A stretch of DNA of 64,000 nucleotides, taken from NCBI GenBank assembly GCA_036867785.1, contig CP145418.1, positions 1 to 64,000 of the forward strand. The letters are read 5' to 3'. Below the pieces are notes generated by a model that had not been told where the DNA came from, did not search any database, and saw only the letters and a program-made list of their open reading frames with translations. Position numbers and translations under genes: made by a program. This document shows positions 14,870-15,785 of this stretch, piece by piece (within the stretch, counting starts at the first letter, position 1; each line of letters opens with the position of its first letter). The DNA comes from Plasmodiophora brassicae. Taxonomy: Eukaryota.

Positions 14870-15785
14870 GATGCCAGCGACGACGGGCTGTACGCCTGGA
14901 ACAGCACGCGCCAGCACTTGGCAGCCGAGCCTGCCTGAAACAAAGACAACGCGGACGCGATCTTGTGGTCCAGCATGTGGACGAGTAGAATCTCGCGCGC
15001 GGCTGCCTCGAGAGCTGGGTCGTGTGCCGTACCGGTTGTCGCAGTCGGCGAGCCATCTTCGTTGATCCCGATGACGTCCGCGTACCCACGATTGCGAAAC
15101 CAGAGTGCAGCTGTCTGAACCCAGGACGTGAACGAGTCGGGAGTACCGTCGAACTTGGGCATGGGCAGTCGGCCTGCGTCGCTTCGGCTGTGCGCCTCGG
15201 CGATGATCGGCATGGCCGGGGTCGATGGACAGCTGGTCGGACGCGCCAGCTGCTGCTGCAGGACACGGAGACGGTCGATCTTCTCCTGCCTGGCGATCGT
15301 TGCCTCCGCTTCGGCAATTCGGGTGTCGATCTCCTCGAGCGACAGATGACGCAGCGGGTCGTCATCCGTGTTAGGCGTCGCCTGGCGCTCGGCCATGGCG
15401 AGTAGAGGCTCAGCGCCTGCGCCTATACGACTGTTAATCTGAGAAGGACAATAATGAAGTGGATGTATTACGTACGGCGTGTGCGGCGGACGTTACAGTG
15501 GCGACGTAGTCGCCGACGGTGTAACGGTTGCCAACGCCGGCGGGCACGGAGTCGCGGAGTGCGTGACGGCGTTCACGTGCTGCAGGCATGTGCTGCTGGT
15601 CGTAGTGGATACGTTGTTCGACATCGGTGACGCGAGAAGGCTTTCGGACGGTGGAAGGGTGGAGCGCCTGGCTAATGGGACCAGCGCGGGAGCATGAGCA
15701 TGGCCGCCACTTGCACACGCCCGCTGTTCTGCAGAAGATGATTGTAGCGGTAGTGGTTCAGGGCGTGGGAAAGGAACCGCAATTG

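Follow-up and report, generated by a model that had tools for sequence, protein, structure and literature searches.

A 5' fragment of tRNA-Asn as the probable primer of a Ty1/copia element in Plasmodiophora brassicae

We analyzed the first 64,000 nucleotides of contig CP145418.1 of Plasmodiophora brassicae (assembly GCA_036867785.1), referred to as the window, which contains three nested long terminal repeat (LTR) elements defined by their direct repeats. One of them, element A, is a Ty1/copia element on the minus strand (8887-15623). From its primer-binding site (PBS), element A is probably of the Hemivirus type and primed by a 5' fragment of tRNA-Asn(GUU), not by initiator tRNA-Met (iMet). 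This is a known mechanism with an unusual tRNA, not a new mechanism.

The primer-binding site of element A

The site and the two LTRs that frame the element are as follows.
15428-15439, minus strand: PBS GATTAACAGTCG, complement of positions 29-40 of tRNA-Asn(GUU), one of the few window 12-mers that fit an anticodon-arm rule
15440-15623, minus strand: 5' LTR, 184 nt, TG..CA, upstream of gag on the minus strand
8887-9070, minus strand: 3' LTR, 184 nt, TG..CA, direct repeat of 15440-15623

On the minus strand, GATTAACAGTCG lies directly past the terminal CA of the 5' LTR. It is the exact complement of CGACTGTTAATC, which occupies 15428-15439 on the plus strand, where the LTR begins with TG at 15440 (...cgcctatacgactgttaatc followed by tgagaagg...). 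The sequence, its place directly inside the 5' LTR and its minus-strand orientation had been proposed in the initial annotation and are confirmed here. The same annotation had recognised in its complement the anticodon arm of tRNA-Asn(GUU), with its end at about position 40; this reading also holds, in the same register as the sites of the second copia element of the window (copia B) and of 34 relatives presented below.

When CGACTGTTAATC is aligned on tRNA positions 29-40, it provides C32 U33 G34 U35 U36 A37 A38, i.e. the loop CTGTTAA, and two stem pairs (A-T at 31-39 and G-C at 30-40). Any shift of register that brings a T to position 33 also brings a pyrimidine to position 37; Asn(GUU) is thus the sole tRNA-like reading. 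The corresponding string of element A to be set against a tRNA-Asn(GUU), ending at position 40, is ATACGACTGTTAATC. The 12-mer CGACTGTTAATC has a single occurrence in the window. A generic anticodon-arm rule is passed by 460 of the 127,978 window 12-mers (0.36%), and a strict one (C32 U33, A37 A38 and two Watson-Crick pairs) by 23 of them (0.018%).

The PBS adjoins the 5' LTR and complements an internal tRNA segment ending at nucleotide 40, as judged on tRNA-Asn genes generally, not on the host's own. It starts with GAT and not with the TGG of Pseudovirus-type priming by a tRNA 3' end. It also differs at 6 of 12 positions from GGTTATGGGCCC, the iMet-half site, and its anticodon complement is AAC (Asn), not ATG. 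With A26 U27 A28 in the host tRNA, the PBS may stretch to 15425, i.e. over 15 nt; its length of 12-15 nt is that found in the 34 relatives. From the 100% identity of the two LTRs, the site served in a transposition that took place recently.

If copia and Ty5 are taken as analogous, the host tRNA-Asn would be cleaved after nucleotide 40, on the 3' side of the anticodon stem. The new 3' end of the tRNA (...CGACUGUUAAUC) would anneal to GAUUAACAGUCG, directly downstream of U5, and reverse transcriptase (RT) would extend the tRNA fragment into the 5' LTR, producing minus-strand strong-stop DNA. In this model the host would have a tRNA-Asn with the same arm, which would be cleaved and would act as the primer. 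The packaging of the cleaved fragment in virus-like particles and its extension there are, by the same analogy, putative for element A.

A GCTCAG is present on the plus strand at 15408-15413, 27-32 nt ahead of the point where the PBS complement ends. In 13 of the 110 viral tRNA-Asn genes among the matches listed, the GCTCAG of the D-arm has this register. It may act as a second pairing box. In the 34 relatives, no conserved box follows the iMet site.

Structure of element A

The remaining parts of the element are listed below.
15624-15628: target-site duplication TCGGT, 5-bp flank, upstream copy for the minus-strand element
8882-8886: target-site duplication TCGGT, 5-bp flank, downstream copy
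14662-15396, minus strand: first open reading frame (ORF), 244 aa, N-terminal part of gag, with its ATG 31 nt past the PBS
13396-14661, minus strand: about 1.27 kb interrupting gag, with many in-frame stops and a GC content (45-54%) lower than its surroundings
11401-13395, minus strand: ORF with the C-terminal part of gag, a protease barrel and integrase (Pfam Pol_BBD, gag_pre-integrs, rve and SH3_retrovirus)
8940-11309, minus strand: ORF for RT and RNase H that extends into the 3' LTR (Pfam RVT_2, E 1.2e-49)
9071-9080, minus strand: polypurine tract GGAGGGGGCG, directly 5' of the 3' LTR

Since gag, integrase and RT follow one another on the minus strand with decreasing coordinates, 15440-15623 is the 5' LTR. 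At the other end, the minus strand ahead of the 3' LTR reads ...GCTGGAGGGGGCG. Element A shows all the features of a Ty1/copia element: TG..CA LTRs, a 5-bp target-site duplication, the order gag, protease, integrase, RT, RNase H and an RVT_2-type RT. The best match of this RT is the P. brassicae protein PBRA_009602 (89% identity). A Pfam search with the 244-aa first ORF gave no match.

The RT ORF is in a different frame from the integrase ORF. The GC content around the 13396-14661 segment is 58-68%, against 45-54% within it, and no terminal repeats were found when they were looked for at this segment. It resembles an insertion, or a non-coding insert, within an otherwise young copy of element A.

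Comparison with tRNA-Asn genes

The scan of viral_contigs for the pattern CGACTGTTAATCG followed by a T-loop gave at least 120 loci. Among the matches listed, ARAGORN called a tRNA-Asn(gtt) containing CGACTGTTAATCG in 110 of 120. In the called genes the 13-mer starts at a linear offset of 28-31, equivalent to canonical position 29. Measured from position 40 backwards, the match with element A extends over 12 nt in 86 genes, 13 nt in 23 and 15 nt in one (L162), again among the matches listed. Because these genes were picked by the 13-mer pattern, they prove only that the arm is natural and that the 12-mer ends at position 40. A yeast cytoplasmic tRNA-Asn presumably has the same arm.

No tRNA gene was detected in the window (ARAGORN, Rfam) or in 79 related metagenomic loci (ARAGORN). 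When the contigs of runs X2, X14, X9 and X8 were compared with the viral tRNA-Asn L162:71-146 at 80% likeness, only two contigs, both of X2, matched. Their matches cover positions 79-120 (42 nt) with 83-86% identity, i.e. 6-7 differences, and they have a different acceptor stem and an encoded CCA; they look like a bacterial tRNA, probably tRNA-Ile. The string CAGATTAACAGTCG is found at 83 loci of viral_contigs, none of which has a copia protein, and at none of them does the 14-mer lie within a tRNA-Asn called by ARAGORN. A search of the literature for the 12-mer and the 13-mer returned a single, unrelated paper.

The sites of copia B and of metagenomic relatives

The second Ty1/copia element of the window provides a comparison in the same host.
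25571-30608, minus strand: copia B, with LTRs of 190 nt, target-site duplication TTGTG and an intact 1342-aa polyprotein with copia domains
30407-30418, minus strand: PBS of copia B, GGTTATGGCCCA, of the iMet-half type, in the same register as that of element A, directly past the 5' LTR

The LTRs of copia B are 99% identical. The initial annotation had given copia B an iMet-half PBS. GGTTATGGCCCA is indeed found directly past its 5' LTR, but the match is not complete: its G run is one G shorter than in GGTTATGGGCCC, the form of most of the 34 relatives. The explanation is either a different initiator tRNA in the host or a pairing that tolerates a single mismatch.

We gathered 79 metagenomic relatives with the RT alignment A2 (29-38% identity). 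In 34 of them GGTTATG[GA]G[CT]C, the iMet-half site in the same register, is found directly past an LTR-like end; an Asn-type site beside an LTR end is found in none of the 79. The search for other half-tRNA sites in the 45 loci that do not carry the iMet motif, many of which are without a 5' region, gave only noise.

An unrooted RT tree was built on 70 rows: elements A and B, 55 loci and 13 database proteins. The other 24 of the 79 loci were left out, their best tblastn segment being shorter than 400 aa or containing a stop. Element A and P0004-P0011 form a clade of nine rows (Shimodaira-Hasegawa-like approximate likelihood ratio test, SH-aLRT, 100), embedded among subclades that include 29 iMet-half rows. 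By its RT, element A thus has its affinity with users of half-tRNAs. The presence of iMet users on several sides of the nine-row clade makes a switch from iMet to Asn parsimonious. This plausible switch would have taken place within the clade or at its base; of the nine rows, A is the one whose PBS was read.

The metagenome scan with alignment A2 returned no DNA of the P0005-P0011 clade, only the relatives at 29-38% identity. Searches with P0006 in viral_contigs and with P0001 in genome_contigs gave no match, and the 24-mer spanning LTR and PBS has no match in genome_contigs.

Weighing of the alternatives

Several observations weigh against the proposal of a tRNA-Asn primer. The pairing of element A is AU-rich and weaker than the iMet pairing: the calculated duplex energies are -15.9 kcal/mol (12 bp) and -20.0 kcal/mol (15 bp), versus -23.4 kcal/mol for the iMet 12-mer. 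The copy is non-autonomous as assembled, gag being broken by the stretch of about 1.27 kb with stops and RT being out of frame. The PBS is known from one copy of the family, and the closest relatives (P0004-P0011) are represented by their proteins only. Lastly, the 110 pattern-chosen tRNA-Asn genes are evidence for the existence of such arms but not for one in the host, and the host tRNA-Asn sequence was not found in the window, the 79 related loci or the literature.

The broken reading frames and the single copy would also suit a site that has lost its function, i.e. an iMet-half site that mutated in a defective copy, either trans-mobilised or immobile, and that resembles an Asn arm by chance. 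The site of copia B, one base off the common form, is a further point in favor of this explanation. Nevertheless, we consider it unlikely. The site of element A departs from GGTTATGGGCCC at 6 of 12 positions and yet yields a perfect anticodon arm (p between about 2e-4 and 4e-3). The LTRs are 100% identical and the target-site duplication is intact, and even a trans-mobilised element still requires a working PBS.

Half-tRNA priming could also involve another tRNA with a similar arm, e.g. tRNA-Lys(CUU/UUU) or another decoder of ANN codons, the C opposite G34 being then a tolerated mismatch. The published site of the fungal FunCo1, ATTAAGAGTCT, assigned to an internal region of tRNA-Lys in PMC5445492, differs from the overlapping part of the site of element A at two positions only. 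The site of element A is however a 12/12 complement of the Asn arm. With a Lys primer, the AU-rich duplex of 12 bp would contain a C-C or C-U mismatch at its centre, and the identity of the LTRs leaves no time for decay. We therefore hold another tRNA to be improbable.

A tRNA-independent start, by Tf1-like self-priming or at a hairpin or palindrome site, is very improbable: element C of the window does carry a self-priming signature (below), but no complement of at least 7 nt exists between the 40 nt past the LTR of element A and this LTR, while the same script finds 10 nt for element C, the positive control, and GATTAACAGTCG is not palindromic.

The tRNA-Asn half is thus retained as the probable primer of element A. 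The initial annotation had presented this as a primer switch in a copia lineage. The position of the clade among users of iMet halves supports that part, and the lack of a self-priming complement agrees with a tRNA half as primer; the contrast it drew with iMet alone was overstated, half-sites for Ile, Arg(UCU) and Lys having been published.

Other features of the window

The third LTR element belongs to another superfamily.
18602-24266, plus strand: element C, Ty3/gypsy chromovirus, with LTRs of 120 nt, target-site duplication TTTAA, RVT_1, RNase H, integrase and chromodomain
18724-18733, plus strand: self-priming site of element C, TTGACCGACT, 10 nt, complementary to 18688-18697 inside its own LTR

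The pairing in element C is a Tf1-like self-priming signature, and together with the two copia elements three priming modes would lie within 22 kb.

The window is GC-rich (about 57-70%). CCCTAAA telomere repeats, about 20 in tandem, are found in its first 200 nt and degenerate towards the interior, which places the nest of LTR elements in a subtelomeric region. A near-perfect palindrome of 72 nt (TTGTAGACCGGACCGCC...GGCGGTCCGGTCTACA) is present in four copies. One (15784-15855) is just outside the 5' LTR of element A; the three others (25851-25922, 26103-26174 and 26364-26435), with a spacing of 252-261 nt, lie between the 3' LTR of copia B and the end of its ORF. Two further repeats were noted: a unit of about 2.3 kb present three times in tandem at 2255-7909 (spacings of 1943 and 2305 nt, 63-100% identity) and, at 47225-50091, an array of at least 9 copies of a 120-nt repeat (61-85% identity, 65-70% GC) with a conserved core of 70 nt, which is possibly a repetitive coding sequence.

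Discussion

Half-tRNA priming is textbook knowledge for copia and Ty5. According to PMC1181622, with which PMC5371799 and PMC8515867 agree, the hemiviruses copia, Ty5, Osser and 1731 use a half tRNA and start from the 3'-OH of its nucleotide 40. Like Drosophila copia, yeast Ty5, Volvox Osser and Drosophila 1731 (Hemivirus, Pseudoviridae), element A has the Ty1/copia domain order. These named hemiviruses use initiator tRNA-Met, whereas the site of element A, with its 6 differences from the iMet-half site, spells the Asn(GUU) arm.

Half-tRNA sites other than iMet have been published in Ty1/copia elements for Ile, Arg(UCU) and Lys, as described in PMC6317226, PMC4139406 and PMC5445492. Half tRNA-Ile is assigned to the plant Bianca lineage (PMC6317226) and the internal region of tRNA-Lys to the fungal FunCo1 (PMC5445492). 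The published elements come from plants, yeasts and filamentous fungi, in contrast to element A, which belongs to a rhizarian parasite and points to a different tRNA. We found no paper naming a half tRNA-Asn site, in a search that did not extend to bioRxiv supplements and most subscription journals. PMC6317226 mentions tRNA-Asn among PBSs that are mostly complementary to tRNA 3' ends, and primer sites are not discussed in the paper on the diatom CoDi elements.

The half-tRNA primers named so far, namely the published iMet, Ile, Arg(UCU) and Lys together with the Asn of element A, are all ANN decoders. The tRNAs for Asn, Ile, Arg(UCU) and Lys all read ANN codons, and in ANN-decoding tRNAs A37 carries t6A. 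Since the named primers share U36, A37 and A38, every site of this kind has TTA at positions 3-5. One may ask whether half-tRNA priming is open only to ANN-decoding tRNAs, an idea that we regard as doubtful, and of which no statement was found in the literature searched. If it were true, the U36-A37-A38 loop would be recognised either by the enzyme responsible for the cut after nucleotide 40 or by the RT or nucleocapsid of the element, and primer switches such as that from iMet to Asn in the P. brassicae clade would be short mutational walks within the ANN set. The loop common to the named primers may be due to a rule of recognition, or simply to the few mutations that separate one such site from another.

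If confirmed, tRNA-Asn would be the fifth tRNA species among the half-tRNA primers of copia elements, and the mechanism would be extended to Rhizaria. A subtelomeric window of 64 kb would then combine three priming modes: an Asn half, an iMet half and self-priming. Standard PBS finders whose search is limited to the 3' ends of tRNAs will overlook elements of this kind in the genomes of protists. The case of element A also sharpens the question of why the known half-tRNA primers all come from ANN-decoding tRNAs with a U36-A37-A38 loop.
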